A stretch of DNA of 37,126 nucleotides from Escherichia virus Mu_3F6. This document shows, piece after piece, positions 1 to 20,329 of this stretch. Position 1 is the first letter of the stretch. Every line of letters begins with the position of its first letter. The notes beneath the pieces were generated by a model. That model did not search any database. It was not told where the DNA came from and saw only the letters and a list, made by a program, of their open reading frames with translations. The position numbers and the translations under genes were made by a program. The stretch lies in the sequence record LR595867.1; one strand, given 5' to 3'.

Positions 1-149
1 CCAGTGTAAGGCTATCTCCTGCTGCCGGGCTGGCACCGGTGTCCGTCACGAATATTTTGAAATCACCTGTTGCCTGACCGGTGACGTTGAGCTGATCGCT
101 CTGATGATTAGCCATATCGGTACGCATATAAAAATTGCCGTTTCCCGAC
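1..149 (-). other. host flanking DNA; partial open reading frame on the minus strand running up to the prophage junction
   Basis: Lies left of the Mu-type terminus at 150. The minus-strand frame has no stop across all 149 bp (reads ...QSGNGNFYMRTDMANHQSDQLNVTGQATGDFKIFVTDTGASPAAGDSLTL leftwards). Host gene not recognised. Confidence 0.35.
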
Positions 150-330
150 TGTATTGATTCACTTGAAGTACGAAAAAAACCGGGAGGACATTGGATTATT
201 CGGTATTTGGCGGGATTAGATTTAGTGGGGCTTGCAAGCCTGTAGGACAGATTTTAGCCGTTACATCTTGAAACGCGAAAGATTGTTGGAAACAGCTTTT
301 GATTCATTAAAGACACGAAAAGCAATTACT
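150..330 (+). repeat. prophage left end (attL) with transposase end-binding sites L1-L3
   Basis: Terminal TGTATTGATTCACTTGAAGTACGAAAAA (150-177) plus internal CGAAA-containing repeats (TTGAAACGCGAAAGA near 277-292, TGATTCATTAAAGACACGAAAAG near 301-323) fitting the MuA end-site pattern. Confidence 0.8.
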
Positions 331-488
331 TCACGCATCATTTCAAGTACAGCTTCAAAAATGCTTCAAAAACGGTAACAACCAGGCTTTCAGCAAGTGA
401 TGTGTGTCAAAAACAATCATCACTGTTTGAGTATCTTACATATGTAATTACCTGGAGTGAAGTTTATGTCTTAGCTATTACCTGGTTG

Positions 489-1013
489 TTATACAGCTTT
501 CTTTACATCGTTTTCTCTTACAGGGAAATTATGTTCTTTGCCTTCATACTGAGACAAAATCTCTCTCACTTTTTCCGGTGGTAATGCCTGAAGAGTTTGC
601 AGGGTTTTCTGTTGCTCCACAGTAATCCCTAATGCCTCTAATGCCTTATCTTTACTGACAATTGTAGGCATAAGTCCTTTAATCCCTGCTACACGAATGA
701 TCTCCACTGCTGCGGCCTGCTCATCTGGTGTTAAGAAACTCATTGCATAAATTAGCCTCTCATCAACTGTATGGACGATTGATGTATGCACTGGTTTATC
801 AGAAAGTGAGGCTCCTTTAATGGCCCTGCGTGTTTCTTCTGGCAGACTGTTGATGTGATACTCATAAGCGACACCTTTCCCACCGTGACGCTGACGTTTT
901 ACCCAATCTTCCGCCACAGCTTTCCTGGTAATGTTAGTCGCCAACTTTGGTACACCAGGCATCCCTTCCAGCTCTTTCGCATTAAACCATTCTTTGATTT
1001 CAAAAGACATCAT
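489..1013 (-). CDS. c: immunity repressor c (D108-like variant, 174 aa)
   Basis: Leftward ORF at the left end, divergent from ner-A-B; N-terminal region resembles the N-terminal DNA-binding region of the A transposase in this window ([20 protein letters not shown]). RBS AGGA upstream of ATG. Confidence 0.8.
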   Translation of the reverse strand: MMSFEIKEWFNAKELEGMPGVPKLATNITRKAVAEDWVKRQRHGGKGVAYEYHINSLPEETRRAIKGASLSDKPVHTSIVHTVDERLIYAMSFLTPDEQAAAVEIIRVAGIKGLMPTIVSKDKALEALGITVEQQKTLQTLQALPPEKVREILSQYEGKEHNFPVRENDVKKAV

Positions 1014-1198
1014 TTAAAATCCTAGTGATTTCAATAGAGACAAAATAAATTCATATAAAAATCATGCTGTTATATGAAATCATGATAAATCCTTTCAAAT
1101 CACTATTGATTTAAAAATGATTCCACACTACATTGCACGATATGCCGTGAGCTACTTTATAGCGTAGCTCACGGGGGAATCTGAAAGGATTACATGAA
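1014..1198. promoter_or_regulatory. operator / early promoter / transposition enhancer region between c and ner
   Basis: AT-rich divergent intergenic region with repeated TGATTT/AAATCA motifs; position equivalent to Mu O1-O3, Pe and Pc. Exact sites not resolved. Confidence 0.6.
1145..1174. promoter_or_regulatory. perfect 11-bp inverted repeat with 8-bp spacer (CCGTGAGCTAC-TTTATAGC-GTAGCTCACGG), candidate Ner operator
   Basis: Seen directly, 25 bp upstream of the ner start; matches my recollection of the D108 Ner binding site architecture. Confidence 0.55.
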
Positions 1199-1420
1199 AT
1201 GCATATGAATAAAAGAACTAACCGCCAAGATTGGCACAGAGCTGACATCGTTGCAGAGCTACGAAAACGCAATATGTCACTAGCTGAATTGGGAAGATCT
1301 AATCATCTTTCGTCTTCAACATTAAAAAATGCTTTGGATAAGAGATATCCGAAAGCGGAGAAAATCATTGCAGATGCACTGGGAATGACACCGCAAGATA
1401 TTTGGCCGTCTCGATACTAG
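1199..1420 (+). CDS. ner: Ner, negative regulator of early transcription (73 aa, D108-like)
   Basis: Small basic HTH-like protein directly upstream of A; RBS AGGA 9 nt upstream; position and size as in Mu/D108. Confidence 0.8.
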
Positions 1421-1427
1421 GTGCGCT

Positions 1428-3416
1428 ATGAAAGAATGGTATACAGCAAAAGAGTTGCTCGGTTTGGCAGGTTTACCAAAGCAAGCCACTAACATTACAC
1501 GTAAGGCACAAAGAGAAGGCTGGGAGTTCAGGCAGGTTGCAGGGACTAAAGGTGTATCATTTGAATTCAATATCAAATCATTCCCTGTCGCATTACGTGC
1601 TGAAATTCTGTTGCAACAAGGGAGAATTGAAACAAGTCAGGGGTATTTTGAAATCGCCCGCCCCACGCTGGAAGCCCATGATTATGATCGTGAGGCACTG
1701 TGGAGCAAATGGGATAACGCCAGCGATTCCCAGCGCAGACTTGCTGAAAAATGGTTGCCTGCGGTTCAGGCTGCAGACGAAATGCTGAACCAGGGGATTT
1801 CAACGAAAACGGCTTTTGCGACCGTTGCAGGGCATTACCAGGTCAGCGCATCCACTTTGCGGGACAAGTATTACCAGGTACAGAAGTTTGCGAAGCCTGA
1901 CTGGGCGGCTGCACTTGTTGATGGACGTGGAGCATCCCGTCGCAATGTTCACAAAAGTGAATTTGACGAGGATGCCTGGCAGTTTCTGATTGCAGATTAT
2001 CTGCGACCGGAAAAACCCGCCTTCCGCAAATGTTATGAGCGTCTGGAACTGGCAGCCCGCGAGCATGGCTGGAGTATTCCCTCCCGTGCCACGGCCTTTC
2101 GCCGGATTCAGCAACTGGACGAGGCAATGGTTGTTGCCTGTCGTGAAGGTGAACATGCACTGATGCATCTGATACCGGCACAGCAGCGAACTGTGGAACA
2201 CCTGGACGCCATGCAGTGGATCAACGGCGACGGTTATCTGCATAACGTCTTTGTACGCTGGTTTAACGGTGATGTGATCCGTCCGAAAACATGGTTCTGG
2301 CAGGATGTGAAAACCCGAAAAATTCTGGGCTGGCGCTGCGATGTGAGCGAGAACATTGATTCAATTCGCCTCTCGTTCATGGATGTTGTGACTCGCTACG
2401 GTATCCCGGAGGATTTTCACATCACCATTGATAACACCCGTGGTGCTGCGAATAAATGGCTGACGGGAGGCGCGCCCAATCGCTACCGCTTTAAGGTAAA
2501 AGAGGACGATCCAAAAGGACTGTTTTTACTGATGGGGGCGAAAATGCACTGGACAAGCGTTGTTGCCGGTAAAGGCTGGGGCCAGGCAAAACCTGTTGAA
2601 CGTGCTTTCGGTGTTGGTGGGCTTGAGGAATACGTTGATAAGCATCCGGCACTGGCTGGCGCATATACGGGGCCTAATCCGCAGGCAAAACCTGATAACT
2701 ATGGCGACCGCGCTGTTGATGCAGAGCTGTTTCTGAAAACCCTTGCCGAAGGTGTGGCGATGTTCAATGCCAGAACAGGCCGTGAAACAGAAATGTGCGG
2801 AGGCAAACTTTCGTTTGATGACGTTTTTGAGCGTGAATACGCCAGAACGATTGTGCGTAAGCCTACCGAAGAGCAAAAACGGATGCTGTTACTGCCTGCC
2901 GAGGCAGTGAACGTTTCACGTAAAGGCGAGTTCGCGCTTAAAGTTGGTGGCTCCCTTAAAGGTGCGAAAAACGTTTATTACAACATGGCGTTAATGAATG
3001 CCGGAGTAAAAAAAGTTGTGGTCAGATTTGATCCACAGCAGTTACACAGCACGGTTTATTGCTACACCCTTGACGGTCGGTTTATCTGTGAAGCGGAATG
3101 TCTGGCACCTGTTGCGTTTAATGATGCTGCGGCAGGCCGTGAATATCGCCGCCGCCAGAAACAACTGAAATCTGCGACGAAAGCAGCAATTAAGGCACAG
3201 AAACAAATGGATGCACTGGAAGTGGCAGAGCTGCTGCCGCAGATAGCCGAACCTGAAGCACCAGAATCACGAATTGTCGGCATTTTCCGGCCTTCCGGTA
3301 ATACGGAACGAGTGAAGAATCAGGAGCGTGATGATGAATACGAAACTGAGCGTGATGAATATCTGAATCATTCGCTGGATATTCTGGAACAGAACAGACG
3401 TAAAAAAGCCATTTAA
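1428..3416 (+). CDS. A: transposase A (MuA, DDE transposase, 662 aa)
   Basis: Near-identical to recalled MuA over most of its length, ending ...[13 protein letters not shown]; N-terminal ~60 aa diverge (D108-like). Confidence 0.97.
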
Positions 3417-3454
3417 TTAACGTTTAAACAAAATTTAATTACGAGGTTATTCAG

Positions 3455-4393
3455 ATGAATATTTCCGATATTCGCGCAGGACTGCGCACGCTTGTAGAAA
3501 ATGAAGAAACCACCTTTAAACAAATTGCTCTTGAGAGCGGACTTTCTACCGGAACTATCAGTAGTTTTATCAATGATAAGTACAACGGGGATAACGAGCG
3601 TGTTTCACAAATGCTGCAACGCTGGCTGGAAAAATATCATGCAGTTGCAGAACTACCTGAACCGCCCCGCTTTGTGGAAACGCAGACGGTAAAACAAATC
3701 TGGACAAGTATGCGTTTTGCCAGCCTGACTGAAAGTATTGCTGTTGTATGTGGCAATCCTGGTGTGGGCAAAACCGAAGCGGCCCGTGAATATCGCCGCA
3801 CCAATAACAATGTCTGGATGATCACCATTACGCCATCCTGTGCCAGCGTTCTGGAATGTCTTACTGAACTGGCGTTTGAGCTGGGAATGAATGACGCACC
3901 ACGCCGTAAAGGGCCGCTCTCCCGCGCCCTGCGACGTCGCCTTGAAGGTACACAGGGGCTGGTTATCATCGACGAAGCTGATCATCTTGGTGCCGAAGTT
4001 CTGGAAGAACTCCGCCTGTTACAGGAATCAACCCGTATTGGCCTTGTGCTGATGGGAAATCACCGGGTTTATTCAAATATGACGGGGGGTAACAGAACGG
4101 TTGAATTTGCCCGTCTGTTTTCCCGTATTGCAAAGCGCACTGCAATTAATAAAACCAAAAAAGCCGATGTAAAAGCTATTGCGGATGCCTGGCAGATTAA
4201 CGGCGAAAAAGAACTGGAGTTATTACAGCAGATTGCGCAGAAACCAGGTGCGCTTCGCATTCTGAATCATTCACTTCGCCTTGCCGCCATGACGGCTCAC
4301 GGTAAAGGTGAGCGTGTTAACGAAGATTATCTGCGTCAGGCTTTCCGTGAATTAGACCTGGACGTTGATATTTCAACGCTGCTGCGTAATTAA
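3455..4393 (+). CDS. B: transposition ATPase / target DNA activator B (MuB, 312 aa)
   Basis: Walker A GNPGVGKT and Walker B VIIDEADH; size and position as MuB. Confidence 0.95.
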   Translation: MNISDIRAGLRTLVENEETTFKQIALESGLSTGTISSFINDKYNGDNERVSQMLQRWLEKYHAVAELPEPPRFVETQTVKQIWTSMRFASLTESIAVVCGNPGVGKTEAAREYRRTNNNVWMITITPSCASVLECLTELAFELGMNDAPRRKGPLSRALRRRLEGTQGLVIIDEADHLGAEVLEELRLLQESTRIGLVLMGNHRVYSNMTGGNRTVEFARLFSRIAKRTAINKTKKADVKAIADAWQINGEKELELLQQIAQKPGALRILNHSLRLAAMTAHGKGERVNEDYLRQAFRELDLDVDISTLLRN

Positions 4394-4408
4394 GAAGGAG
4401 AAGAAATT

Positions 4409-4636
4409 ATGATGGCCCGAAATATAAAAATGGCAACGGATGCGCAGAACTGGTTACAGGCGCGCGGGAGTCATGTAAATGAATCATATCTCGGCGTGGC
4501 GCGTCCGATTCTTGAAATCACTTACCCACCGGTGGAACTGGTAAAAAACGCGGTCAGAATTATGGAGCATAAGTCCGGGGTGGCCCGTTCTGTATGGACG
4601 GCCCGTCTTAATGGTTGCCAGATTATCTGGAGATAA
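4409..4636 (+). CDS. early-region small protein (75 aa), position of Mu kil
   Basis: Strong RBS AAGGAG before ATGATG; first gene after B. Assignment as Kil is positional only. Confidence 0.55.
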
Positions 4637-4638
4637 CG

Positions 4639-4869
4639 ATGTGTATTAAAGCTGAAAAATATATTGAATGGGTTAAACACTGTCAGTGCCACGGGTTGCC
4701 GCTGACGACATATAAATGCCCCGGATGTGGTGAACAGATTATGACGCAATGCTCACCCGAAAAGGAAATTCGGGATTCCCTGACATGTTGTCCGTGGTGC
4801 AGCGCGGTTTTCTTTAAGCAGGTAAAAGGCGCGAAGGTAAAAGCCAGCGCAGTTATTCAGAATCAATAA
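4639..4869 (+). CDS. Cys-rich early protein (putative zinc-binding, ~76 aa)
   Basis: CxxC...CPGCG...CCPWC pattern; ATG at 4639 preceded by GGAGA (preferred over the track start at 4615). Confidence 0.55.
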   Translation: MCIKAEKYIEWVKHCQCHGLPLTTYKCPGCGEQIMTQCSPEKEIRDSLTCCPWCSAVFFKQVKGAKVKASAVIQNQ

Positions 4870-4880
4870 GGAGAAACAAA

Positions 4881-5150
4881 ATGGCAAAGGTTATCTTTGA
4901 GTTTACATGGCTGGAAAGTAGTGACGGTTGCAATGGGCGCAGAGAAGTTCTGGATGCAAAAGCATGTCTTGCAGATATCTCGCCAACGGAAAATACCGGG
5001 CCTCATGATTTACTGGCAAATATCGTCCTGACTATGGCTCCTGAAATTATTAAAAAGGCCAAAGATGAGATGCTGACCACTATGAAGAAAGTGGGTATGG
5101 AAGCTGAATGTGATTTAGTACCACATCCGGTGAATGCGGTTAAACATTAA
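4881..5150 (+). CDS. early-region hypothetical protein (89 aa)
   Basis: RBS AAGGAGA upstream; tightly packed in the early operon. Confidence 0.55.
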   Translation: MAKVIFEFTWLESSDGCNGRREVLDAKACLADISPTENTGPHDLLANIVLTMAPEIIKKAKDEMLTTMKKVGMEAECDLVPHPVNAVKH

Positions 5151-5170
5151 TTCGCAAAGGAACGCTGACA

Positions 5171-5590
5171 ATGAACGTCAAAATCCGAAATGAAATTCAG
5201 GCATTAATCCGAATTCAGGAACGCAATAACAACGGTGGTGAATTACGCGAGTTTATTTGCGCCAGGAAAGTTGATGATTGTGGTGAAAAGACGTACCTGA
5301 TTGCTTTCGACCATTACAGCATCTGTGCGCGTTATTGCGGCGAAAGCATATCCCGCGCCATTGCATTTGGAGGTGCGTTCAACGTGGATTTATGGGAGTA
5401 CGTCATGGACCGGGAATACATCTGCGCATCAGACCCTGAAGCCCGTGAAATGTGGCAGCGTATCTGGCGCGATTACCGGTTAATGGCAAAAGGCTGGGCG
5501 CGCTGCTGTTATTCCTCGCTTGCCCTGAAAGCGGTTCAGTTATCGCTGCGACATATTCCGGCACCACTGCGCGAGCCTCTGCTGTACTGA
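5171..5590 (+). CDS. early-region hypothetical protein (139 aa)
   Basis: RBS AAGGAA upstream; operon context. Confidence 0.55.
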   Translation: MNVKIRNEIQALIRIQERNNNGGELREFICARKVDDCGEKTYLIAFDHYSICARYCGESISRAIAFGGAFNVDLWEYVMDREYICASDPEAREMWQRIWRDYRLMAKGWARCCYSSLALKAVQLSLRHIPAPLREPLLY

Positions 5591-5890
5591 ATGGTGGCTG
5601 ACATGAAGTGTAATCGTAAGCGCTGGTCACGCGAAGACCGGGAATTTATCGAAGCCAACGTCGGGAAAATGACCGTTGAAGAAATGGCGGAAAAACTGAA
5701 AGTCGCCACAACCGCCCTCCGGGCACATGCCAGAAGGCACGGAATATCATTGTGTGTATACCGAATCAGTGAGCACGACAAATATTTGTGTCGTGAACTT
5801 TATAAAGAAGGGCTGGATATTCATGTCATTGCCCGAAAGATGGAATTAAGCAATCGGGCTGTATCCAGCATTGTATACAGCGGATATTAA
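5591..5890 (+). CDS. early-region hypothetical protein (99 aa; start may be ATG at 5603)
   Basis: ORF abuts the stop of the previous gene; basic, helical. Confidence 0.5.
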   Translation: MVADMKCNRKRWSREDREFIEANVGKMTVEEMAEKLKVATTALRAHARRHGISLCVYRISEHDKYLCRELYKEGLDIHVIARKMELSNRAVSSIVYSGY

Positions 5891-5909
5891 TTAACAGGAG
5901 CTTTAATTT

Positions 5910-6434
5910 ATGGCTAAACCAGCAAAACGTATCAAAAGTGCCGCAGCGGCTTATGTGCCACAAAACCGCGATGCGGTGATTACCGATATTAAACGCATCG
6001 GGGATTTACAGCGCGAAGCATCACGTCTGGAAACGGAAATGAATGATGCCATCGCGGAAATTACGGAGAAATTTGCAGCCCGGATTGCACCGATTAAAAC
6101 CGATATTGAAACCCTTTCAAAAGGTGTTCAGGGATGGTGTGAAGCGAACCGCGACGAACTGACAAACGGCGGCAAAGTGAAGACGGCGAATCTTGTCACC
6201 GGTGATGTATCGTGGCGGGTCCGTCCACCCTCAGTAAGTATTCGTGGTATGGATGCAGTGATGGAAACGCTGGAGCGTCTTGGCCTGCAACGCTTTATTC
6301 GCACGAAGCAGGAAATCAACAAGGAAGCGATTTTACTGGAACCGAAAGCGGTCGCAAGTGTTGCCGGAATTACAGTTAAATCGGGAATTGAAGATTTTTC
6401 CATTATTCCGTTTGAACAGGAAGCCGGTATTTAA
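5910..6434 (+). CDS. gam: Gam, host-nuclease inhibitor / DNA-end binding protein (174 aa)
   Basis: Matches recalled Mu Gam in size and sequence; RBS AGGAG. Confidence 0.9.
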   Translation: MAKPAKRIKSAAAAYVPQNRDAVITDIKRIGDLQREASRLETEMNDAIAEITEKFAARIAPIKTDIETLSKGVQGWCEANRDELTNGGKVKTANLVTGDVSWRVRPPSVSIRGMDAVMETLERLGLQRFIRTKQEINKEAILLEPKAVASVAGITVKSGIEDFSIIPFEQEAGI

Positions 6435-6532
6435 TACCACCATTAATATTTAATTAATTCACATTCTTTTAATTATGGCGCGATGCGTCAGGGGATTGCT
6501 CGCGCCTGAAACAGATTACTGAGGAATAAAAC

Positions 6533-7063
6533 ATGGTTGATGCAAAAATTCTGAATGGTGTCAGCACATTATTACGGGCTTACGGACGCCTGACCTGCGG
6601 AGTTCTGGCTGAAAAAATGAATATGCTGCCCTCGTCAATGGTGTATTTCCTGCGTGATGCAGTTGATGCCGGAGTGCTCACCGAATGCAACGGATTTTAT
6701 GACGTTCCGCGCCCGCGTCCGACGCCGCCTGTAAGACGAAACGTAACTGAGCAGCCTGCTGTTGATGATGCGGTGTGGTGCAACTGGCGTCGCTCATTAC
6801 CCTGGGTGGAAGGTAATACCATCCCCGCGCTGGCAAAAGAGTTTGCGACGGGCGTACTGACCTGTGAATCCGTTCACATCGTTGCAGAAGTGGACAACAG
6901 CATGTGCGAACAGGGTATGCCCCGTTTTGTGATGGCTTATATCGATATCCGGCTGGGGCGTTTTATTTGCAGTTCAAGCGCCTGGAATATCACCGACCAT
7001 GTACTGCGTTATCTCATTCTTGATTGTTCTCCGGTTCCCGCAGCGGTGCAGGAGGTGGCGTGA
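6533..7063 (+). CDS. early-region hypothetical protein (176 aa)
   Basis: RBS GAGGA upstream; operon context. Confidence 0.55.
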   Translation: MVDAKILNGVSTLLRAYGRLTCGVLAEKMNMLPSSMVYFLRDAVDAGVLTECNGFYDVPRPRPTPPVRRNVTEQPAVDDAVWCNWRRSLPWVEGNTIPALAKEFATGVLTCESVHIVAEVDNSMCEQGMPRFVMAYIDIRLGRFICSSSAWNITDHVLRYLILDCSPVPAAVQEVA

Positions 7064-7593
7064 TGTTTTTTAAAACGTCAAATTCCGCAGCACTGCTGGC
7101 ATGGGACCAGTTTATGGCGGACTGCCTGAAACTACGCGAAGAAGCCCGCCATCTTGATAAGGTTCTGGGCTGTGGTTGCCGGTCAGTATTCAGCACAGGT
7201 ATTGGTGGGCGTCATTTTCATGGCGTGAATTTTCCGGGGAATGAGCGCCCCTTCTCGCGGGAGCTGTGGACCGTACAACGGCCCGCATCAGGTAACAGTT
7301 GCAGGCCCAGAACTTCACGGATACCTGCTCATCTCAGGGAGCAGGCAAGAGAGCTGGCGAAAATATGGCAGGAGAATATTCCGGTCACTTACGCCCGCAC
7401 AGACGCTCTTTTACCCGCACTGGGACTGGATTTCAGCGCAACAATATTCGGGCCGCTCCAGTGGTTCCGTGTTGGTGATGTGATTTACGTCATGACGGGG
7501 ATGACACCCGCACAAGGCCGCATGACTGAAATCCTTTCTGACGAATTTATCCGGGCGCAAAAACAGGCGGAGGTAAACAATGGAAAACAATGA
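7063..7593 (+). CDS. early-region hypothetical protein (176 aa; start moved to ATG 7063)
   Basis: GGAGG RBS 7 nt before ATG at 7063; the track start at 7024 overlaps the upstream gene. Confidence 0.5.
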   Translation: MFFKTSNSAALLAWDQFMADCLKLREEARHLDKVLGCGCRSVFSTGIGGRHFHGVNFPGNERPFSRELWTVQRPASGNSCRPRTSRIPAHLREQARELAKIWQENIPVTYARTDALLPALGLDFSATIFGPLQWFRVGDVIYVMTGMTPAQGRMTEILSDEFIRAQKQAEVNNGKQ

Positions 7594-7772
7594 AAAACAA
7601 TGAAACATCGTATTCGTGGCTGGGGAAATTTACCACGGTGAAACAGGAATGCCCGACCTGCGGTAATGAATCTCCTGAATATCTGAAAGAGTGCCCTCAT
7701 TGTGGCGGGCAGAAATGCAACCACTGCGATATGGGCGATGACACGGCGTGCATGAATTGTGAAGGTGAATAA
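7590..7772 (+). CDS. small Cys-rich protein (60 aa, zinc-ribbon-like)
   Basis: CPTCG...CPHCGG...CNHC...CMNC; start overlaps upstream stop (ATGA). Confidence 0.45.
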   Translation: MKNNETSYSWLGKFTTVKQECPTCGNESPEYLKECPHCGGQKCNHCDMGDDTACMNCEGE

Positions 7773-7773
7773 T

Positions 7774-8064
7774 ATGAATAATGAAACTAAATTTACGCCT
7801 AAAGACCTGGATGAAGAACTGGTGAAAGCTAAGATGCTTGAGCGTATGCGCGATGTTATTGAGACTGCAATCAGTAAAGGCTTTTCTGCGAGAGAGGCCC
7901 TTGAAATTATGACACGGGAAATTCATCTCATACGCGACGAAGTTTTGTTGCATAACAAAAAAGCCCACAACAATATTGTTTGTCGTGAGCTTGGCGTTGA
8001 TGATTCAGCGGTTATTCCACAGCGTCAGTATCTGTGTGCTCTGATGAGAGGTTCCCGGCATTAA
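7774..8064 (+). CDS. early-region hypothetical protein (~96 aa)
   Basis: ATG at 7774 preceded by AAGGTG; its 3' end overlaps the convergent minus-strand ORF 8012..8371. Confidence 0.45.
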   Translation: MNNETKFTPKDLDEELVKAKMLERMRDVIETAISKGFSAREALEIMTREIHLIRDEVLLHNKKAHNNIVCRELGVDDSAVIPQRQYLCALMRGSRH

Positions 8065-8371
8065 CAATATCCTGCCTTGAAGCCCAGAGCTTATTGAGCA
8101 GCAGATCAACATACTCATCGGCCTCAAAATCCAGTTCTTCGAACGTTTTTCGGTTCTTATAGCTGGCCTGTGTATTTCTGATGATGTCATAAGCATCGTG
8201 CATGTTGATAACACCGTTTTCAATCAGCTTAATCATCAGATTACCGACCAGCATAAAACCGGTTATACCAAAGAATTTATCCTGGTTATTAACAGGGGTG
8301 TCTTTCTGGTTTGTTTCGAAATCTGGGTTTTGTTCATCATCCGACACCGTATGTTGTTCTTGTTCAGCCAT
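8012..8371 (-). CDS. acidic hypothetical protein (119 aa) transcribed against the early operon; candidate acquired gene
   Basis: Leftward ORF with RBS AAGGAAA about 7 nt upstream of ATG; region visibly AT-rich; Asp/Glu-rich product. Confidence 0.5.
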   Translation of the reverse strand: MAEQEQHTVSDDEQNPDFETNQKDTPVNNQDKFFGITGFMLVGNLMIKLIENGVINMHDAYDIIRNTQASYKNRKTFEELDFEADEYVDLLLNKLWASRQDIVNAGNLSSEHTDTDAVE

Positions 8372-8440
8372 AATATTTCCTTTTATGTTATTACTGAATA
8401 TGGCGGTGTTGCAGCACCGCCTCTTTCCGGAGGTACGATC

Positions 8441-8992
8441 ATGAGTCGCACATCCCTGATTAAATTAATCCATGTCGCCCGTCGGGAGCTACAACTCGAC
8501 GACGACACTTACCGCGCTTTTCTGATGCAGAAAACGGGCAAAATCAGTTGCCGCGAGCTTACGGTTACGCAACTGGAACAGGTGCTCGATGCCATGAAAG
8601 AACGCGGCTTTAAGAAGCTGAATAAATACCCCCGTCGCCGCTTTAAGGAACATGTCACACCCCGCGAGAAGGTGTATAAAATCTGGCAGCAGATGGCAGA
8701 AGACGGTTTTATTACCGATGGCGGTGATGTGGCGCTGGACAGATATGTTCAACGCCTGACCGCGAAACGCAACGGCGGACAGGGTGTTTCCACACTGGCG
8801 TGGTGTCATGGCGACACGCTGCTGACAGTCCTCGAAACACTCAAACAGTGGCACATCCGCTGTATTCGTGAAGCCTTTTCCCGTCACGGGCTTCCATTGC
8901 CGGTCAGTCCGTCCGGTCGTGAACTGCGCGGCTATGATGCCATGACGGCGGCTTATGCCCATGCCAGAAAGACACGGAGGATGGCACAATGA
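8441..8992 (+). CDS. gemA: GemA-like early protein (183 aa)
   Basis: GGAGG RBS before ATG at 8441; directly precedes mor as in Mu. The upstream part of the track ORF 8198..8992 is rejected as an extension. Confidence 0.7.
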   Translation: MSRTSLIKLIHVARRELQLDDDTYRAFLMQKTGKISCRELTVTQLEQVLDAMKERGFKKLNKYPRRRFKEHVTPREKVYKIWQQMAEDGFITDGGDVALDRYVQRLTAKRNGGQGVSTLAWCHGDTLLTVLETLKQWHIRCIREAFSRHGLPLPVSPSGRELRGYDAMTAAYAHARKTRRMAQ

Positions 8993-9378
8993 CGGAAGAT
9001 TTATTTGGTGATTTGCAGGATGACACCATCCTGGCACATCTTGACAATCCCGCAGAGGATACGTCACGCTTTCCGGCACTGCTGGCGGAGCTGAACGATT
9101 TACTACGCGGGGAATTGTCCCGACTGGGTGTTGATCCTGCCCATTCACTGGAGATTGTTGTGGCTATCTGTAAGCATCTGGGCGGCGGTCAGGTCTACAT
9201 TCCACGCGGTCAGGTTCTGGACTCGCTGATTCGGGATTTGCGTATCTGGAATGATTTTAACGGTCGCAACGTCAGCGAACTGACCACCCGTTATGGTGTC
9301 ACTTTCAATACGGTTTACAAGGCCATTCGCCGGATGCGACGGCTGAAATACCGCCAGTACCAGCCCTCACTTCTGTAA
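8989..9378 (+). CDS. mor: Mor, middle operon regulator (129 aa)
   Basis: Recognised Mu Mor; clear paralog of C in this window (shared ...YIP.G...L...F NGRN..EL...Y... core). Confidence 0.9.
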   Translation: MTEDLFGDLQDDTILAHLDNPAEDTSRFPALLAELNDLLRGELSRLGVDPAHSLEIVVAICKHLGGGQVYIPRGQVLDSLIRDLRIWNDFNGRNVSELTTRYGVTFNTVYKAIRRMRRLKYRQYQPSLL

Positions 9379-9383
9379 ACAGT

Positions 9384-9408
9384 AAAGCCGGTTAATCCGG
9401 CTTTTTTT
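9384..9408 (+). terminator. rho-independent terminator at end of early operon
   Basis: Stem AGCCGG / CCGGCT with loop TTAAT followed by a run of 7 T, 6 nt after the mor stop. Confidence 0.8.
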
Positions 9409-9455
9409 ACGTCCTCAATATCCTGTGATGAATAACCGTACCGGGGGAAATCATC

Positions 9456-9674
9456 ATGGGTAAAGGCTGGAATGCATCCTTTCATCTTGGCAGACGTGAG
9501 CGGCTGCGTCAGGAGGTTTTGCACCGTGTCGCCGGTGGGCCACGTCCTGCGCCCCGCGACTATACCGGTCATGATGGCACCCACGGCAGTTATTACATGA
9601 AAGGCTGGCAGTCAGTTGATATGCCGGAAATTCTTCATCATTGCCTGCTTTACAGGGAGAAACATTATGTCTGA
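9456..9674 (+). CDS. middle-region hypothetical protein (72 aa)
   Basis: ORF between the early terminator and C. Confidence 0.4.
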   Translation: MGKGWNASFHLGRRERLRQEVLHRVAGGPRPAPRDYTGHDGTHGSYYMKGWQSVDMPEILHHCLLYREKHYV

Positions 9675-10029
9675 GCGTTCTGCTCGTCAGTGGCCTGATT
9701 TTTTATCGGTGGTGTTACTGGCGCTGTTATTGTGGATAAGTCTGTTTTGTGGCTGGCGCGCGCTGATGTTTTGCTGTGCCTCGGTTTTCAGTGTTGCTTT
9801 ATGTGTTGCCGGTGATTGCCTGGATGCGCTGATAATGAGCTGCCGGGTGCCTGAACATTTTGCCCGGTTCGTCTGGCCTCTGACCTGGCTGGGGAGTCTG
9901 TCCGGGCTGGGATTAGCCGTGATGGCAACGTCTCAACTGAAAACGGGTCCTGAGCATGTCATCTGGGCGCTGGCCGGATTGCTGACGTTCTGGATCTCCT
10001 TTCGTTTTCGCGCTCGTCTGTTCGGGTAA
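9667..10029 (+). CDS. middle-region integral membrane protein (~120 aa)
   Basis: Several hydrophobic segments (VVLLALLLWISLF, LSGLGLAVMA, LAGLLTFWI); ATG at 9667 chosen within track ORF 9616..10029. Confidence 0.5.
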   Translation: MSERSARQWPDFLSVVLLALLLWISLFCGWRALMFCCASVFSVALCVAGDCLDALIMSCRVPEHFARFVWPLTWLGSLSGLGLAVMATSQLKTGPEHVIWALAGLLTFWISFRFRARLFG

Positions 10030-10170
10030 AGGGGCACCATGTACAGAAAATTCAGTGATGAATGTTTCGGGCCGTCCACGCTGATTAGTGCGATAAAAGT
10101 GATTGCCCTTGTGGTTCTGATAACCATCAGTGCCGTGGTGTATCTTTCTGTCTGTTAACCGGGGGAAAAT

Positions 10171-10593
10171 ATGCAGCATGATTTATTTGAACACGATCCG
10201 GCAATTCGCCAGTTAATCGGACATATTGATAACATCCCGGCCCCGGAACTGGAATCACGCTGGCCCCGTTCGGTGGTTGATCTGATTGATGTTCTGGAAA
10301 ACGAACTGAAACGCCAGAACGTCAGCAATCCCCGTGAACTTGCCCGTAAACAGGCCGTTGCCCTGTCATGTTTTCTGGGTGGACGGCAGTTTTACATCCC
10401 CTGCGGCGATACGATCCTGACCGCGTTACGCGACGATTTGCTTTACTGCCAGTTTAATGGTCGTAACATGGAAGAACTGCGTCGCCAGTACCGCCTGTCC
10501 CAGCCGCAGATCTACCAGATTATTGCCCGCCAGAGAAAGCTGCATACACGACGTCATCAGCCTGATCTGTTCTCACCTGAAAGCCCAAAATAA
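10171..10593 (+). CDS. C: C, late gene transcription activator (140 aa)
   Basis: Recognised Mu C; RBS GGGGGAAA upstream; paralogous to Mor. Confidence 0.9.
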   Translation: MQHDLFEHDPAIRQLIGHIDNIPAPELESRWPRSVVDLIDVLENELKRQNVSNPRELARKQAVALSCFLGGRQFYIPCGDTILTALRDDLLYCQFNGRNMEELRRQYRLSQPQIYQIIARQRKLHTRRHQPDLFSPESPK

Positions 10594-10614
10594 CCGGCAT
10601 CCTGCCGGTTATTT
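10592..10614 (+). terminator. hairpin at end of middle transcript (candidate terminator)
   Basis: Stem AACCGGCA / TGCCGGTT with 3-nt loop overlapping the C stop, followed by ATTT. Confidence 0.5.
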
Positions 10615-10684
10615 CCTGTCACCATAATCCCGCATCTGCCACCTGATTTTTTAGACTGCCATCAGAGCATTTTTTCAGGGAAGC

Positions 10685-11203
10685 ATGATGGCGGGGATAC
10701 CAAAAAAACTGAAAGCCACACTGCTGGCTGTAACGATTGCCGGTGGCGGTGTGGGTGGTTATCAGGAAATGACCCGTCAGTCTCTGATCCATCTGGAAAA
10801 TATCGCTTATATGCCTTACCGCGATATTGCCGGTGTGCTTACGGTCTGTGTGGGACATACCGGGCCGGATATCGAAATGCGCCGTTACAGCCATGCGGAG
10901 TGTATGGCTCTCCTCGACAGTGATTTAAAACCGGTTTATGCGGCAATCGATCGTCTTGTCAGGGTGCCGCTGACGCCATATCAGAAAACGGCGCTGGCAA
11001 CGTTTATTTTCAACACTGGTGTTACCGCATTCAGTAAATCAACGCTGCTGAAAAAACTCAATGCCGGTGATTACGCCGGAGCGCGTGACCAGATGGCCCG
11101 CTGGGTGTTTGCCGCAGGCCATAAATGGAAAGGACTGATGAACCGTCGCGAAGTGGAAATGGCAATCTGGAATATCAGGGGGGCGGATGACCTTCGCAAG
11201 TAA
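10685..11203 (+). CDS. lys: endolysin, T4-lysozyme-type with N-terminal signal-anchor-release-like segment (172 aa)
   Basis: N-terminal Gly/Ala-rich hydrophobic stretch ATLLAVTIAGGGVGGY; E-x8-D-x5-T catalytic pattern (LENIAYMPYRDIAGVLT). Confidence 0.85.
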   Translation: MMAGIPKKLKATLLAVTIAGGGVGGYQEMTRQSLIHLENIAYMPYRDIAGVLTVCVGHTGPDIEMRRYSHAECMALLDSDLKPVYAAIDRLVRVPLTPYQKTALATFIFNTGVTAFSKSTLLKKLNAGDYAGARDQMARWVFAAGHKWKGLMNRREVEMAIWNIRGADDLRK

Positions 11204-11573
11204 AAGTTTACTGCTGGCAGCCGTGTTTGCCGCCGTTCTGTCCGGTGTGTTGTGGCACAGGCTGGGCAGCACCCGCCACGATAACCAGACGCTGCGCCGT
11301 GAATTACAGACGGAGCAACAGGCCCGCCACACGGCTGAATGGTTGTTACACGGTCAGGAGCAAACGATGCAGGTATTTTCCGCTATCCGTGCCGCAAATC
11401 GTGCCGCGCGGCTGGCAGACGAGACAGAACATCATGATGCAAAACAAAAAATTACAACCGCCATTACCGGTGACAATTGCAGCACTCGTCCTGTGCCTGC
11501 CGGTGCTGCTGACAGGTTGCGGGAACTCGAAAAACGCACCCGTGCCATCGGTGGTGCTCCTGCCCGAAACTGA
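11187..11573 (+). CDS. inner-membrane spanin component (Rz-like, 128 aa)
   Basis: N-terminal TM helix (LLLAAVFAAVLSGVLW) followed by charged helical region; immediately after endolysin. Confidence 0.6.
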   Translation: MTFASKSLLLAAVFAAVLSGVLWHRLGSTRHDNQTLRRELQTEQQARHTAEWLLHGQEQTMQVFSAIRAANRAARLADETEHHDAKQKITTAITGDNCSTRPVPAGAADRLRELEKRTRAIGGAPARN

Positions 11574-11775
11574 TGCAGAACTGACGGAAGCAACACCCGT
11601 TCCGCCCATGCCACAGCCCCTGACGTGGGGAGCATCCCTTCTCTGGAATGCTGACCTGTTGATGGCGCTCGGGCAGTGCAACCGCGACAAGGCATCAGTC
11701 CGGGAACAGGAGACCCGGAGGAAAGAAATTTATGAACGAAGACCAGAACCGGGCGGTGGTGCTGCTGCTCGCTGA
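11434..11775 (+). CDS. outer-membrane lipoprotein spanin component (Rz1-like), in alternate frame overlapping the i-spanin
   Basis: Starts MMQNKK..., lipobox LLTGC, Pro-rich mature region; starts inside the i-spanin gene in another frame. Confidence 0.55.
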   Translation: MMQNKKLQPPLPVTIAALVLCLPVLLTGCGNSKNAPVPSVVLLPETDAELTEATPVPPMPQPLTWGASLLWNADLLMALGQCNRDKASVREQETRRKEIYERRPEPGGGAAAR

Positions 11776-11926
11776 ACTCTGGCAGGGGGATACCCGTGAT
11801 ATTCCCCGCCCGGCGGCGTATGACCCGCCTGTATTGTGTGCCGGTTGCGGTCGTGAGCTGCGGCCTGATGTGCTGAGACAGCAGCCGATGGCGAACTACT
11901 GCCACTGGTGCCGTGGAGCAGAATAA
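11732..11926 (+). CDS. small zinc-ribbon-like protein (64 aa)
   Basis: RBS GGAGGAAA; CAGCG...CHWC motif pair. Confidence 0.5.
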   Translation: MNEDQNRAVVLLLAELWQGDTRDIPRPAAYDPPVLCAGCGRELRPDVLRQQPMANYCHWCRGAE

Positions 11927-12225
11927 TGGATTTGATTTCAGTTTTAGCGTTATGGCCTTACCTGTTGCCTGTTGTGGCCGGTGGGGCCGTCTGGGCGATG
12001 CGTCGTAGTTTTGCCAGCACCGAGCGTGTGGAGCGTCTTGAAAACCGGATGACCGAAATGGAAACCCGCTACGCCAGCATCCCAGGCACAGAAGATGTAC
12101 ACGAAATGCGCCTGCGTATTGCAGAGCTGTCCGGCGATATCCGGGTGCTGTCCCAGCGGGTGCAGTCATTTTCCCATCAACTGGAGCTGCTGCTTGAAAA
12201 CGCAGTAAACCGGAGTAATTCATGA
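11926..12225 (+). CDS. small membrane protein in lysis cassette (~100 aa), possible endolysin-release factor
   Basis: N-terminal TM segment (LISVLALWPYLLPVVAGGAVWA) then coiled-coil-like region; functional assignment is positional. Confidence 0.45.
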   Translation: MDLISVLALWPYLLPVVAGGAVWAMRRSFASTERVERLENRMTEMETRYASIPGTEDVHEMRLRIAELSGDIRVLSQRVQSFSHQLELLLENAVNRSNS

Positions 12226-12512
12226 TTAACGATATTCTGACTGAAGACCGTCGTCTGGTCATCCTGCGTTCCCTGATGGACTGCAATAACGAAGCCAACG
12301 AATCCATCCTTCAGGACTGTCTGGATGCATACGGACACAACGTTTCCCGCGATGTGGTTCGCGGCCAGATTGACTGGCTGGCAGAGCAGCAACTGGTCAC
12401 CGTGGAAAACCTGCGCGGCTTTTATGTCGTAACGCTGACCTCCCGAGGTCAGGATGTGGCGGAAGGCCGCGCCCGCGTTGCCGGTGTCAAGCGTCCGCGT
12501 CCCCGTGCATGA
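12222..12512 (+). CDS. hypothetical protein (96 aa)
   Basis: RBS GGAG upstream; precedes the packaging genes. Confidence 0.5.
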   Translation: MINDILTEDRRLVILRSLMDCNNEANESILQDCLDAYGHNVSRDVVRGQIDWLAEQQLVTVENLRGFYVVTLTSRGQDVAEGRARVAGVKRPRPRA

Positions 12513-12523
12513 CAGGAGGCGTG

Positions 12524-13099
12524 ATGGACAGGAAAACACGGGGCCGGGCTTCAAAAGTGGATTTACTGCCGGAAAACGTACGTAAAACGCTGCATGAAAT
12601 GCTGCGTGATAAGGCGATCCCACAGGCCCGCATTCTGGAAGAAATTAACGCACTGATTGAAGACGCTGGCCTGCCGGATGAGATGAAACTCTCCCGTTCC
12701 GGTCTGAACCGTTACGCGACGAACGTCGAGCAAGTAGGCCATAACCTGCGACAGATGCGTGAAATGACGTCAGCACTGACCGCAGAACTTGGCGACAAGC
12801 CAATGGGAGAAACCACAAAGCTGATTCTGGAAATGGCCCGCAGCCAGCTTTTTAAGGCCATGATGCGGCAAATCGAAAACCCGGAATCTGACGTGGATAT
12901 TGACCTGCTGAAAAATGCCATGCTGGCGGCACAGCGTCTGGAATCCACGGCAATGTCCAGCCACCGGCGCGAGAAAGAAATCCGCCAGGCATTCGCAGAA
13001 GAAGCGGCAAACGCCGTCAGTGAAGAACTGCGCGGGCAGGATGGCATCAGCGAAGAGCTGGAGCAGCGTATCCGTGATGTGCTGCTGGGTAAGGCATGA
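12524..13099 (+). CDS. putative terminase small subunit (~191 aa)
   Basis: AGGAGG RBS 6 nt before ATG at 12524; directly upstream of the large terminase. Confidence 0.6.
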   Translation: MDRKTRGRASKVDLLPENVRKTLHEMLRDKAIPQARILEEINALIEDAGLPDEMKLSRSGLNRYATNVEQVGHNLRQMREMTSALTAELGDKPMGETTKLILEMARSQLFKAMMRQIENPESDVDIDLLKNAMLAAQRLESTAMSSHRREKEIRQAFAEEAANAVSEELRGQDGISEELEQRIRDVLLGKA

Positions 13100-13106
13100 G
13101 AGGGTT

Positions 13107-14762
13107 ATGAACACCAGAGAAAACAACCTTAAAGCCCTTCATGCCCCCCGAAAAATCAACCTGCGTGAGGAAGCCGAACTGCTCGGCGTGCATATCGTGA
13201 CCGATATCGGGGAAGCACAGCCCCGCAATGAACCGGTTTTTCTGGGCTATCAGCGCCGCTGGTTTGAGGATGAAAGCCAGATTTGCATCGCTGAAAAATC
13301 CCGTCGTACCGGTCTGACATGGGCCGAAGCGGGCCGCAATGTCATGACGGCAGCAAAGCCGCGCCGCCGTGGCGGTCGCAACGTCTTTTATGTGGGTTCC
13401 CGTCAGGAAATGGCGCTGGAATATATCGCCGCCTGTGCCCTGTTTGCCCGCGCCTTTAACCAGCTGGCAAAGGCTGATGTCTGGGAGCAGACCTTCTGGG
13501 ACAGCGACAAAAAAGAAGAAATCCTCACTTATATGATCCGTTTCCCTAACAGCGGATTTAAGGTGCAGGCGCTGTCAAGCCGTCCGTCTAACCTGCGTGG
13601 TTTGCAGGGGGACGTGGTGATTGATGAGGCGGCATTTCATGAAGCCCTGGACGAACTCCTGAAAGCGGCCTTTGCTCTCACCATGTGGGGTGCCCGCGTG
13701 CGGATCATATCGACACATAACGGCGTCGATAACCTGTTTAACCAGTACATTCAGGATGCGCGCGAGGGGCGCAAGGATTACAGCGTTCACCGCATCACGC
13801 TGGATGATGCCATCGCTGACGGGTTGTACCGACGTATCTGTTACGTCACGAATCAGCCGTGGTCGCCGGAAGCGGAAAAAGCCTGGCGTGATGGCCTGTA
13901 CCGGAATGCGCCGAATAAAGAGAGTGCCGACGAGGAATACGGCTGCATTCCTAAAAAATCCGGGGGCGCTTATCTGTCACGCGTGCTGATTGAAGCCGCC
14001 ATGACGCCAGCGCGGGATATCCCGATTCTGCGTTTTGAAGCCCCGGACGATTTTGAATCGCTGACACCACAAATGCGCCACGGCATCGTTCAGGACTGGT
14101 GTGAACAGGAGCTGCTCCCGTTGCTCGATGCGCTGTCGCCGCTCAATAAACACGTACTGGGCGAAGACTTTGCACGCCGTGGCGACCTGACGGTGTTTGT
14201 TCCGCTTGCCATCACTCCTGACTTACGCAAACGCGAATGTTTCCGCGTGGAGCTGCGTAATGTGACCTATGACCAGCAGCGACAAATCCTTTTATTCATT
14301 CTGTCCCGTTTGCCCCGTTTTACCGGCGCTGCATTTGATGCCACCGGTAACGGCGGTTATCTGGCAGAAGCCGCCCGTCTGATTTATGGCCCGGAGATGA
14401 TCGACTGCATCAGTCTGACCGCCGCCTGGTATCAGGAGTGGATGCCGAAACTGAAAGGCGAGTTTGAAGCGCAGAACATCACGATTGCCCGGCATCAGAC
14501 CACACTCGATGACCTGCTTCATATCAAGGTGGACAAAGGTATTCCGCAGATTGATAAGGGGCGCACAAAAGATGAAAGCGGTAAAGGCCGACGACATGGT
14601 GACTTTGCCGTGGCGCTCTGTATGGCTGTCAGGGCGTCTTATATGAATGGTTTTGTTATCGACGAGGACAGCATACAGGCGCTGCCACCACGCCACCGTG
14701 GTGATGATGTTGATAACGATGATTTTGATGATTATCACCAGTTTGAACGAGGGGGCTGGTAA
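13107..14762 (+). CDS. terminase large subunit (551 aa)
   Basis: ATG at 13107 with GAGG RBS (the track ORF begins upstream at 12915 in the same frame); size and position as the Mu large terminase. Confidence 0.8.
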   Translation: MNTRENNLKALHAPRKINLREEAELLGVHIVTDIGEAQPRNEPVFLGYQRRWFEDESQICIAEKSRRTGLTWAEAGRNVMTAAKPRRRGGRNVFYVGSRQEMALEYIAACALFARAFNQLAKADVWEQTFWDSDKKEEILTYMIRFPNSGFKVQALSSRPSNLRGLQGDVVIDEAAFHEALDELLKAAFALTMWGARVRIISTHNGVDNLFNQYIQDAREGRKDYSVHRITLDDAIADGLYRRICYVTNQPWSPEAEKAWRDGLYRNAPNKESADEEYGCIPKKSGGAYLSRVLIEAAMTPARDIPILRFEAPDDFESLTPQMRHGIVQDWCEQELLPLLDALSPLNKHVLGEDFARRGDLTVFVPLAITPDLRKRECFRVELRNVTYDQQRQILLFILSRLPRFTGAAFDATGNGGYLAEAARLIYGPEMIDCISLTAAWYQEWMPKLKGEFEAQNITIARHQTTLDDLLHIKVDKGIPQIDKGRTKDESGKGRRHGDFAVALCMAVRASYMNGFVIDEDSIQALPPRHRGDDVDNDDFDDYHQFERGGW

Positions 14763-16300
14763 TGGGCCGTATTCTGGATATTTCCGGGCAGCCGTTTGAT
14801 TTTGACGATGAAATGCAGACCCGCAGCGATGAGCTGGCAATGGTCATGAAGCGCACGCAGGAGCATCCTTCCAGTGGTGTGACGCCGAACCGGGCCGCGC
14901 AGATGCTGCGTGATGCCGAACGCGGTGATCTGACAGCACAGGCTGACCTGGCCTTTGATATGGAAGAAAAGGACACCCACCTTTTTTCCGAACTGAGCAA
15001 GCGCCGCCTTGCCATTCAGGCGCTGGAATGGCGCATCGCTCCGGCACGTGATGCCAGCGCACAGGAGAAAAAAGACGCCGACATGCTGAATGAATATCTG
15101 CATGATGCGGCGTGGTTTGAAGATGCCCTGTTTGATGCCGGTGATGCCATTCTCAAGGGTTATTCCATGCAGGAGATTGAATGGGGCTGGCTGGGCAAAA
15201 TGCGCGTGCCGGTGGCGCTGCATCATCGCGATCCGGCGCTGTTCTGCGCGAACCCCGATAATCTGAACGAATTACGTCTGCGTGATACGTCTTATCACGG
15301 GCTGGAGCTGCAACCGTTCGGCTGGTTTATGCACCGGGCCAAATCCCGCACCGGGTATGTCGGCACCAATGGCCTTGTGCGCACGCTTATCTGGCCTTTT
15401 ATTTTTAAAAACTATTCCGTGCGTGATTTTGCAGAGTTTCTGGAAATTTACGGACTCCCCATGCGCGTCGGTAAATATCCGACCGGCTCCACGAACCGCG
15501 AGAAAGCCACGCTGATGCAGGCCGTGATGGATATCGGGCGACGTGCCGGTGGCATTATTCCGATGGGGATGACGCTGGATTTTCAGAGCGCCGCAGATGG
15601 TCAGTCAGACCCCTTTATGGCGATGATTGGCTGGGCAGAAAAAGCGATTTCAAAAGCCATTCTGGGCGGCACCCTGACCACAGAGGCTGGCGATAAAGGT
15701 GCACGGTCGCTGGGTGAAGTGCATGATGAGGTTCGCCGGGAAATCCGTAACGCGGATGTGGGCCAGCTTGCCCGCAGTATTAACCGTGACCTGATTTATC
15801 CCCTGCTGGCACTGAACAGTGACAGCACCATTGATATTAACCGCCTGCCGGGCATTGTATTTGATACCAGTGAAGCGGGTGATATTACGGCACTGTCTGA
15901 CGCCATTCCGAAACTGGCGGCGGGAATGCGTATTCCGGTCTCATGGATACAGGAAAAACTCCATATTCCACAGCCGGTCGGTGATGAAGCCGTGTTTACT
16001 GCTCAACCGGTCGTCATGGATAACGGTCCGCAGAAAGAGGCCGCATTATCCGCTGAAGATATCCCGCAGGAGGATGATATCGACCGGATGGGCGTCTCAC
16101 CGGAAGACTGGCAGCGTTCGGTTGATCCCCTGCTGAAACCAGTCATTCTTTCTGTGCTGAAAGATGGCCCGGAAGCCGCCATGAACAAAGCCGCTTCATT
16201 ATATCCGCAGATGGATGATGCAGAACTTATCGACATGCTGACCCGTGCCATTTTTGTTGCCGATATATGGGGGCGTCTGGATGCCGCAGCAGACCATTGA
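14762..16300 (+). CDS. H: portal protein (512 aa)
   Basis: Size and position after terminase; start overlaps terminase stop. Confidence 0.8.
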   Translation: MGRILDISGQPFDFDDEMQTRSDELAMVMKRTQEHPSSGVTPNRAAQMLRDAERGDLTAQADLAFDMEEKDTHLFSELSKRRLAIQALEWRIAPARDASAQEKKDADMLNEYLHDAAWFEDALFDAGDAILKGYSMQEIEWGWLGKMRVPVALHHRDPALFCANPDNLNELRLRDTSYHGLELQPFGWFMHRAKSRTGYVGTNGLVRTLIWPFIFKNYSVRDFAEFLEIYGLPMRVGKYPTGSTNREKATLMQAVMDIGRRAGGIIPMGMTLDFQSAADGQSDPFMAMIGWAEKAISKAILGGTLTTEAGDKGARSLGEVHDEVRREIRNADVGQLARSINRDLIYPLLALNSDSTIDINRLPGIVFDTSEAGDITALSDAIPKLAAGMRIPVSWIQEKLHIPQPVGDEAVFTAQPVVMDNGPQKEAALSAEDIPQEDDIDRMGVSPEDWQRSVDPLLKPVILSVLKDGPEAAMNKAASLYPQMDDAELIDMLTRAIFVADIWGRLDAAADH

Positions 16301-17600
16301 TCTGGCGTATGCCGCACGCCTCCCGCCAAAGGAGGCTGTCGCGTATTTCCGCGCCAAAGGTTACAACATCACCTGGAACTGGTACGAACAACTGGCAGAC
16401 GCGCACGCCTGCGCCTTTACCGTTGCCAAAGCCACCCGGATGGATGTACTGACCACAATCCGTGAGGAAGTGGAGCGGGCTGTCAGTGAAGGCATCACCC
16501 GTGAGGAATTTACCCGCACACTTGCCCCCCGGCTGCAAAAACTCGGATGGTGGGGAAAACAAATCATCGTGGATGCAGACGGAAACGCAAAGGTAATCGA
16601 GCTGGGCAGTCCGCGTCGTCTGGCAACCATTTATAACGTCAATACCCGTACGGCGTATGGGGCAGGACGTTATGCGCAGATGATGAATACCGCCGATTTG
16701 TACCCGTACTGGCAGTACGTTGCCGTTATGGATGGCAGAACACGCCCGGAACATGCGCGGCTGCACAATATGGTTTTCCGGTATGACGACATTTTCTGGC
16801 AGACGCATTACCCGCCCAATGGCTGGAACTGCCGCTGTCGCGTCCGGGCGCTGTCTGCGGCCCGCATGAAAGAACTGGGGCTACAGGTCAGTTATGGTAC
16901 GTCATTCATGAATACCCGCGAAGTGGATGCCGGTACGGATGAAAGCACCGGAGAGATTTTCCGCACATCGTCAACCACGTTTGACAACGGTCGGGTAAAA
17001 ATGACGCCAGATGTGGGCTGGTCATATAACCCCGGTTCGGCGGCATTTGGTACGGATCAGGCACTGATTCGAAAACTGGTGGAAGTTCGTGACGCGCAGC
17101 TGCGTGAGCAGGTTGTTCAGACGCTGAATAACAGCCGGGAGCGTCAGCTTGCTTTTTCCCTCTGGCTTAAACGTCTGGCGAAATCACGCCGGGCCGGACA
17201 TGAGGTCCGTACGCTGGGTTTTATGACGGGATCCGTGGCGGAGGCCGTATATCAGCGCACCGGGAATATGCCAGCCCGTCTGCTTGTGATGAACGGGAAA
17301 AGTCTGGCGACCACTGCTGATGCCGCCCTGAAACCGGAGGATTTACAGCGTCTGCCGTCGCTGATGGCAAAACCACAGGCGGTATTGTGGGACAGGGAGA
17401 ACCACCAGTTGCTGTATGTTGTGGCAACCCGCGACGGCACTGCAAAAGTTGTGGTCAGAACATCGCAGGCTGTCAGCAAACAGAATGACCGGGCGGATGT
17501 GCTGGTCAGTATCAGCCGCGTATCTGCACAGTCGCTTGAAGCCGCGATTGCTGACGGGATGATTGACATACTGGAGGGGCATGTGGAGGTGAATAAGTGA
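16281..17600 (+). CDS. F: Mu F-like head morphogenesis protein (~439 aa)
   Basis: ATG 16281 within track ORF 16245..17600; follows portal. Confidence 0.7.
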   Translation: MPQQTIDLAYAARLPPKEAVAYFRAKGYNITWNWYEQLADAHACAFTVAKATRMDVLTTIREEVERAVSEGITREEFTRTLAPRLQKLGWWGKQIIVDADGNAKVIELGSPRRLATIYNVNTRTAYGAGRYAQMMNTADLYPYWQYVAVMDGRTRPEHARLHNMVFRYDDIFWQTHYPPNGWNCRCRVRALSAARMKELGLQVSYGTSFMNTREVDAGTDESTGEIFRTSSTTFDNGRVKMTPDVGWSYNPGSAAFGTDQALIRKLVEVRDAQLREQVVQTLNNSRERQLAFSLWLKRLAKSRRAGHEVRTLGFMTGSVAEAVYQRTGNMPARLLVMNGKSLATTADAALKPEDLQRLPSLMAKPQAVLWDRENHQLLYVVATRDGTAKVVVRTSQAVSKQNDRADVLVSISRVSAQSLEAAIADGMIDILEGHVEVNK

Positions 17601-20263: not shown

Positions 20264-20271
20264 CCGTCGTT

Positions 20272-20297: not shown

Positions 20298-20329
20298 CCT
20301 GATTTAAAGGAAAAGGAGGAGCATGTGTT

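Follow-up and report, generated by a model that had tools for sequence, protein, structure and literature searches.

The window analysed here, the whole 37,126-nucleotide stretch of Escherichia virus Mu_3F6 (LR595867.1), opens with a short piece of Escherichia coli DNA and then consists of phage DNA up to its very last base. The features on which we draw are given below, with positions counted from the first letter of the window.

1..149, minus strand: internal fragment of E. coli yejO, encoding an AIDA/pertactin-type autotransporter; equals NC_000913.3 2287433-2287581, exact in K-12 MG1655
145..149, no strand: CCGAC, the target pentamer abutting the left end of the phage; the empty site has a single copy, directly left of the break
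150..37126, plus strand: complete D108-type Mu-like transposable phage, terminal TG to terminal CA; 36,977 bp, collinear with D108 1..37235
160..176, plus strand: predicted left-end MuA-type transposase-binding site, L1 equivalent; 0 mismatches, equals D108 feature 11-27
305..321, plus strand: predicted second left-end transposase-binding site; 1 mismatch, equals D108 feature 156-172
489..1013, minus strand: repressor c of the D108 immunity type, 174 aa; 99.4% amino-acid identity to D108 c, with PF02316 on identical proteins in related loci
1428..3416, plus strand: transposase A, 662 aa; 100% amino-acid identity to D108 A
3455..4393, plus strand: target-capture ATPase B, 312 aa; 99.4% identity to D108 B
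32162-34960: invertible G segment, in the orientation opposite to the D108 record
33795..34280, minus strand: tail-fibre assembly protein of the alternative G module; PF02413
34274..34897, minus strand: fibre tip of the alternative G module; PF21882 Gp53-like_C
36587-37033: gene 56 ('D108-specific protein'), 148 aa, past mom; signal-peptide-like N-terminus, 100% identical to D108, no Pfam match
37054..37116, minus strand: predicted right-end transposase-binding sites, at 37100-37116 (minus) and 37078-37094 (minus), with an inverted third at 37054-37070 (plus); 0-1 mismatch

The phage element and its boundaries

A preliminary description had placed a Mu-type terminus at position 150 and the right terminus exactly at the end of the window, and alignment of the ends bears out both placements. 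Window 150 is base 1 of D108 (GQ357916) and of Mu (AF083977), the first 54 phage bases being common to all three, and window 37126 is D108 37235 and Mu 36717, ...GCGCCGCTTCA. From 150 the phage reads TGTATTGATTCACTTGAAGTACGAAAAAAACC..., the last bases of the window, up to 37126, read ...TTTCGTGCGCCGCTTCA, and the termini TGTATTGATTCAC ... GCGCCGCTTCA are the same as in D108 and Mu. When the first 1500 bases were compared with a phage collection by megablast, the match was to D108 at 99.9% and opened at window 150, which is D108 base 1. Over the whole length, window 150-32202 corresponds to D108 1-32043 at 98.3% nucleotide identity and window 34923-37126 to D108 35033-37235 at 99.2%, the G segment forming the exception to this collinearity at 98.3-99.2%.

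The same agreement is seen at the protein level, where 32 of the 34 D108 proteins tested align over their full length at 96-100% amino-acid identity; the two exceptions, S and U, reach only 48-58% identity, and this to the S'/U' region. Ner is 100% identical to its D108 counterpart. The phage is intact and carries its transposition genes. Transposase A is the enzyme that makes the 5-bp staggered cut in the target, and the Pfam domains HTH_Tnp_Mu_1/2, DDE_2 and Mu-transpos_C are found on the 662-aa A proteins of related prophages. The exact B protein is shared by many Mu-type prophages, with a match to PF09077. The open reading frame past mom was considered as a novelty and ruled out, being the annotated gene 56 of D108, whose exact protein is very widespread among public E. 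coli assemblies (3273 index blocks).

Scanning the window with the transposase-binding consensus YMYNWRAARYRCGAAAR, as annotated in D108, gave six matches, five of them at the phage ends, against 0.34 expected by chance, and the two outer matches at the right end coincide with right-end sites annotated in D108. The sixth, with one mismatch, lies at 2954-2970 within gene A, distant from both ends, and is probably a chance match.

Taken together, the element belongs to Muvirus and to its D108 lineage: its termini read 5'-TG...CA-3' and both carry repeated transposase-binding sites, it encodes a DDE transposase A and an AAA+ target-capture protein B beside the left-end c/ner immunity region, it is collinear with the reference D108 over the whole genome, and it shares the near-random choice of sites with a degenerate N-Y-(G/C)-R-N preference, in that CCGAC fits and relatives lie in many genes. 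Judged from its sequence, 150..37126 is a complete D108-lineage Mu-type phage, and both of its boundaries had been set correctly.

In the G segment, D108 S' and U' match the plus strand at 32239-33129 and 33135-33665 with 96-97% amino-acid identity. The half at 33743-34923, on the other hand, has no nucleotide match in D108 or Mu; the S and U of the alternative G-segment module of D108 are replaced here by a different tail-fibre tip and assembly protein, and this differing half may provide a different alternative host range.

The left flank and the interruption of yejO

A search with the flank (window 1-149) found 100% identity to the interior of yejO, with at least 3815 complete E. coli genomes matching at 99% identity or more, and all of the flank matches listed are annotated as yejO or autotransporter YejO. 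In the phase of this gene, the flank runs from the third base of codon 467, at position 149, through codons 468-516, at positions 148 down to 2, to the first base of codon 517, at position 1. In NZ_AP018808, yejO lies on the minus strand relative to the window, and the arithmetic of its coding sequence, 4549-3148 = 1401 = 3 x 467, places the flank frame in phase with the annotated gene. That one minus-strand frame is open right up to the junction had been pointed out before, and this is so: the frame read from 148 is open over all 49 codons and translates as SGNGNFYMRTDMANHQSDQLNVTGQATGDFKIFVTDTGASPAAGDSLTL, and the other two minus frames hold stops. We nevertheless rejected the open frame as evidence on its own, since two of the six flank frames are open and 48% of flank shuffles contain at least one open frame; it is real because it is in phase with the annotated yejO coding sequence, that is, by homology and not by openness. 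We also rejected the flank as an identifier of the host strain, as it is identical in thousands of strains, K-12 included.

In sequence, in reading frame and in genomic continuity, the flank agrees with annotated yejO. In uninterrupted genomes the empty site reads ...GTTTCCCGAC / AGGGTATTGG and runs unbroken past the point at which the phage starts; a longer read of it is ...AAAAATTGCCGTTTCCCGAC / AGGGTATTGGTGGTCAACG..., the slash marking where the phage begins in the window. The phage-occupied left junction in the window is ...GTTTCCCGAC / TGTATTGATTC, and in K-12 MG1655 the break falls at NC_000913.3 2287581/2287582. Because the empty-site sequence runs on across the junction, the phage interrupts yejO. 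The earlier proposal that the element sits within a host gene is thus upheld by the identity of the flank, by the continuity of the empty site and by an open frame that is the yejO frame.

We searched widely for this junction in other public sequences. No match covering at least 80% of the 241-bp left-junction query was found in complete E. coli genomes, and the left junction was absent from GTDB representative genomes and JGI metagenomes, as was a right-junction pattern with a free gap of 0-12 bases, in which no duplication length is assumed. The exact left and predicted right junction strings were absent from IMG/VR. At the protein level, two small open reading frames spanning the junction were not found in the exact-protein index, and the predicted fusion of YejO(1-468) to a phage tail was not found among 5.8 billion proteins, where we saw only separate YejO fragments and the same tail on other host proteins. 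The 488-aa tail-fibre protein of the window itself was also not found in the exact-protein index; the source assembly is therefore probably not indexed.

Target choice here and in related phages

The pentamer CCGAC at 145-149 had been proposed as a target site of the form N-Y-(G/C)-R-N, and it does have this form. By chance, about 1/8 of pentamers would, and within yejO 14.2% of pentamers do, so that the fit by itself is weak evidence. In Mu, the nicked 3'-OH ends attack two bonds of the target that lie 5 bp apart, and target recognition follows the consensus 5'-CYSRG, the preference being a property of MuA (PMC7350765); CCGAC agrees with the stricter CYSRG at four of five positions on either strand.

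More can be said from the target behaviour of D108/Mu-type relatives, whose loci were fetched by exact-protein look-ups and gave 39 junction ends representing 36 independent insertions. NYSRN is fitted by 26 of these 36, against 12.5-14% by chance (in a first subset, 14 of 18, binomial p ~4e-10), and among the junction pentamers at the 39 ends, 37 have Y at position 2, 38 have S at position 3 and 31 have R at position 4. Furthermore, each of the three relatives for which both ends are available is flanked by a perfect 5-bp duplication, ATGCC for L006/L018, ACGGG for L008/L020 and CCGGT for L014. Mu-type prophages of wild E. coli share the same left-end sequence, each in a different host gene (yehR, ygfK, ssuA and an L,D-transpeptidase gene), and look-ups with the gene 56, c, gp30, B and mom proteins returned many relatives, none of them in yejO; among the copies retrieved, the yejO insertion site is so far unique. 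The phage-derived tail KRRTKSAKAFQIKYENSKLSRFN, 23 residues from the right end of Mu/D108, is fused to the N-termini of four unrelated host proteins in public protein predictions (P0004, P0007, P0009 and P0010), and comparable gene interruption has therefore occurred at other loci. This tail is a simple marker of genes interrupted by a D108/Mu-type phage in one frame.

The relatives also include some unusual arrangements. L014 (GCA_900449075.1, UGBI01000002.1, about 760-3870) is a natural deletion derivative of a D108-type prophage. It has kept both ends, and the roughly 3.1 kb between them hold c, com, mom and a truncated A of 283 aa, with the CCGGT repeat on either side. A single E. coli chromosome (GCA_046108995.1, CP151071.1) carries three Mu-type prophages (L033, L034 and L035) whose B proteins are identical but whose repressors are 174, 171 and 196 aa long, so that one cell holds three immunity types. 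In L046 (GCA_030577155.1), the sequence directly past a D108-type right end, from about 4347 onwards, carries genes of a different phage that give Pfam hits to Phage_Mu_Gp36 and Gp37, and this may be an insertion into or beside a second Mu-like prophage.

Insertion model, alternatives and known systems

In our assessment, the sequence very probably records the transposition of a D108-type Mu-like phage into the coding sequence of E. coli yejO. Transposase A would bind the repeated sites at both phage ends and nick each strand beside its terminal CA; the resulting pair of 3'-OH ends would then attack yejO phosphodiester bonds 5 bp apart, around CCGAC, and gap repair or replication would leave CCGAC on either side of the phage. 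At the right end this model predicts GCGCCGCTTCA followed by CCGACAGGGTATTGGTGG, i.e. GCGCCGCTTCA-CCGAC-AGGGTATTGGTGGTCAACG, with the upstream sequence of yejO continuing beyond 37126. By analogy with the relatives, a copy of CCGAC beyond position 37126 is a well-founded expectation, but we infer it, because the window carries no right flank and the junction is absent from the collections searched.

YejO contains AIDA repeats, a Pertactin domain (431-555) and an autotransporter beta-domain (602-841). The insertion would split the gene after codon 468, upstream of the beta-barrel translocator and in the part that encodes the pertactin-like passenger, so that the signal peptide and most of the passenger domain would be separated from the translocator by the break. 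Given the 5-bp repeat, translation of the N-terminal part would continue into the phage as ...TNTLS-VKRRTKSAKAFQIKYENSKLSRFN, across its right end, and stop after 24 foreign codons. If yejO of the host was intact, surface display of the YejO autotransporter would be abolished, because the beta-barrel translocator would be severed from the signal peptide and passenger domain. It is quite possible, if short of probable, that yejO was already a pseudogene at the time of insertion, in which case no working gene was hit and the event was phenotypically silent. In K-12 MG1655 the gene is split by IS5K 67 bp into its length, upstream of the insertion point discussed here, and the annotation of strain E2865 lists it as a pseudogene, with a stop inside the gene, the flank being 100% identical to both. 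The same 149 bp are, on the other hand, identical in thousands of strains, which has no bearing either way; the 'host gene' may have been dead before the phage arrived.

The window holds 149 bp of host DNA on the left and 0 bp on the right, an asymmetry for which the insertion model offers no explanation and which we count against it. In an alternative reading, the flank is real yejO but not a stable resident site, the sequence being a phage-sized contig or virion-derived DNA from phage present at several sites, either in several strains of a metagenome or in a culture undergoing replicative transposition, with the 149 bp as one flank among several, into which the assembly extended by chance. 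The window does stop on the very last phage base, and the exact gp30 variant (window 16281-17600) lies for the most part on contigs of phage size: of 39 index blocks, 25 span 20-50 kb, and the gp30-bearing contigs (L025-L028) include some of 35,975, 36,157 and 37,128 bp, the last of these being an ENA metagenome scaffold. This suggests that assemblies often break at the ends of this phage, as expected with different sites in a mixed sample, and such breaks may explain why the window ends where it does; the window is probably a contig whose assembly broke off at the ends of the phage. However, heterogeneous flanks should halt an assembler at both ends and not at one. As to virions, Mu packages some 100 bp of the host genome at the left end and roughly 1.5 kb at the right (PMC7350765), and the left flank of 149 bp is of the order of the former; the window, with no host DNA on the right, does not hold both on one molecule. 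Because virions carry about 1.5 kb of host DNA at the right end, packaged virion DNA is a less likely source than a contig break. We regard a population with several insertion sites as rather unlikely overall, and it would in any case leave the yejO insertion and the expected duplication valid for that one copy: whether from a contig break or from virion DNA, the flank records a real transposition into yejO.

A chimeric misassembly or cloning artefact, in which the phage never lay beside yejO, has a single point in its favour, namely that the junction occurs in no other public sequence searched. Unique insertion sites are, however, the norm for D108/Mu-type phages, and the join lies at the exact terminal phage base next to a pentamer that fits the target rule, both of which a random chimera would rarely achieve; we consider such an artefact extremely improbable. 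It is only slightly more credible, and still improbable, that the right end no longer lies beside yejO after a Mu-mediated rearrangement or, in a milder version, that yejO is a recurrent landing site for the lineage. The rearrangement could be a deletion or inversion next to the phage, or recombination of one copy with another; the CCGAC repeat would then be missing, which the sudden end of the window would mask.

That Mu inserts into genes, duplicates 5 bp and follows this target rule is textbook knowledge, and transposition into yejO would be ordinary behaviour of a kind already known, the sole new fact being one more insertion site. This natural insertion adds one case that obeys the known target rule, and its importance reaches little beyond annotation; its practical value lies in a clean left boundary of the phage and in a precise prediction for the right junction.

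Among known systems, D108 (GQ357916 / NC_013594; species Muvirus mu) is like the window phage in its ends, base for base, and in its gene order, and it shares the 174-aa repressor type (99.4%) as well as Ner, A and gene 56 (each 100%), with a length of 37,235 bp against 36,977 bp for the element in the window. Mu (AF083977) has the same first 54 and last 18 bases, and the same transposition machinery, 5-bp staggered attack on the target and headful packaging logic. From gene A rightwards, Mu and the window agree at 96-98%, except for short gaps at 4889-5155 and 7797-8401 and the G segment. In window positions of about 215-1615, on the other hand, which span the immunity region from c through ner to the N-terminus of A and are of the D108 type, Mu gives no strong nucleotide match, and it lacks gene 56, unlike the window phage and D108. 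By sequence comparison, the window phage is thus D108 apart from details, these being the orientation of the G segment and one of its halves.
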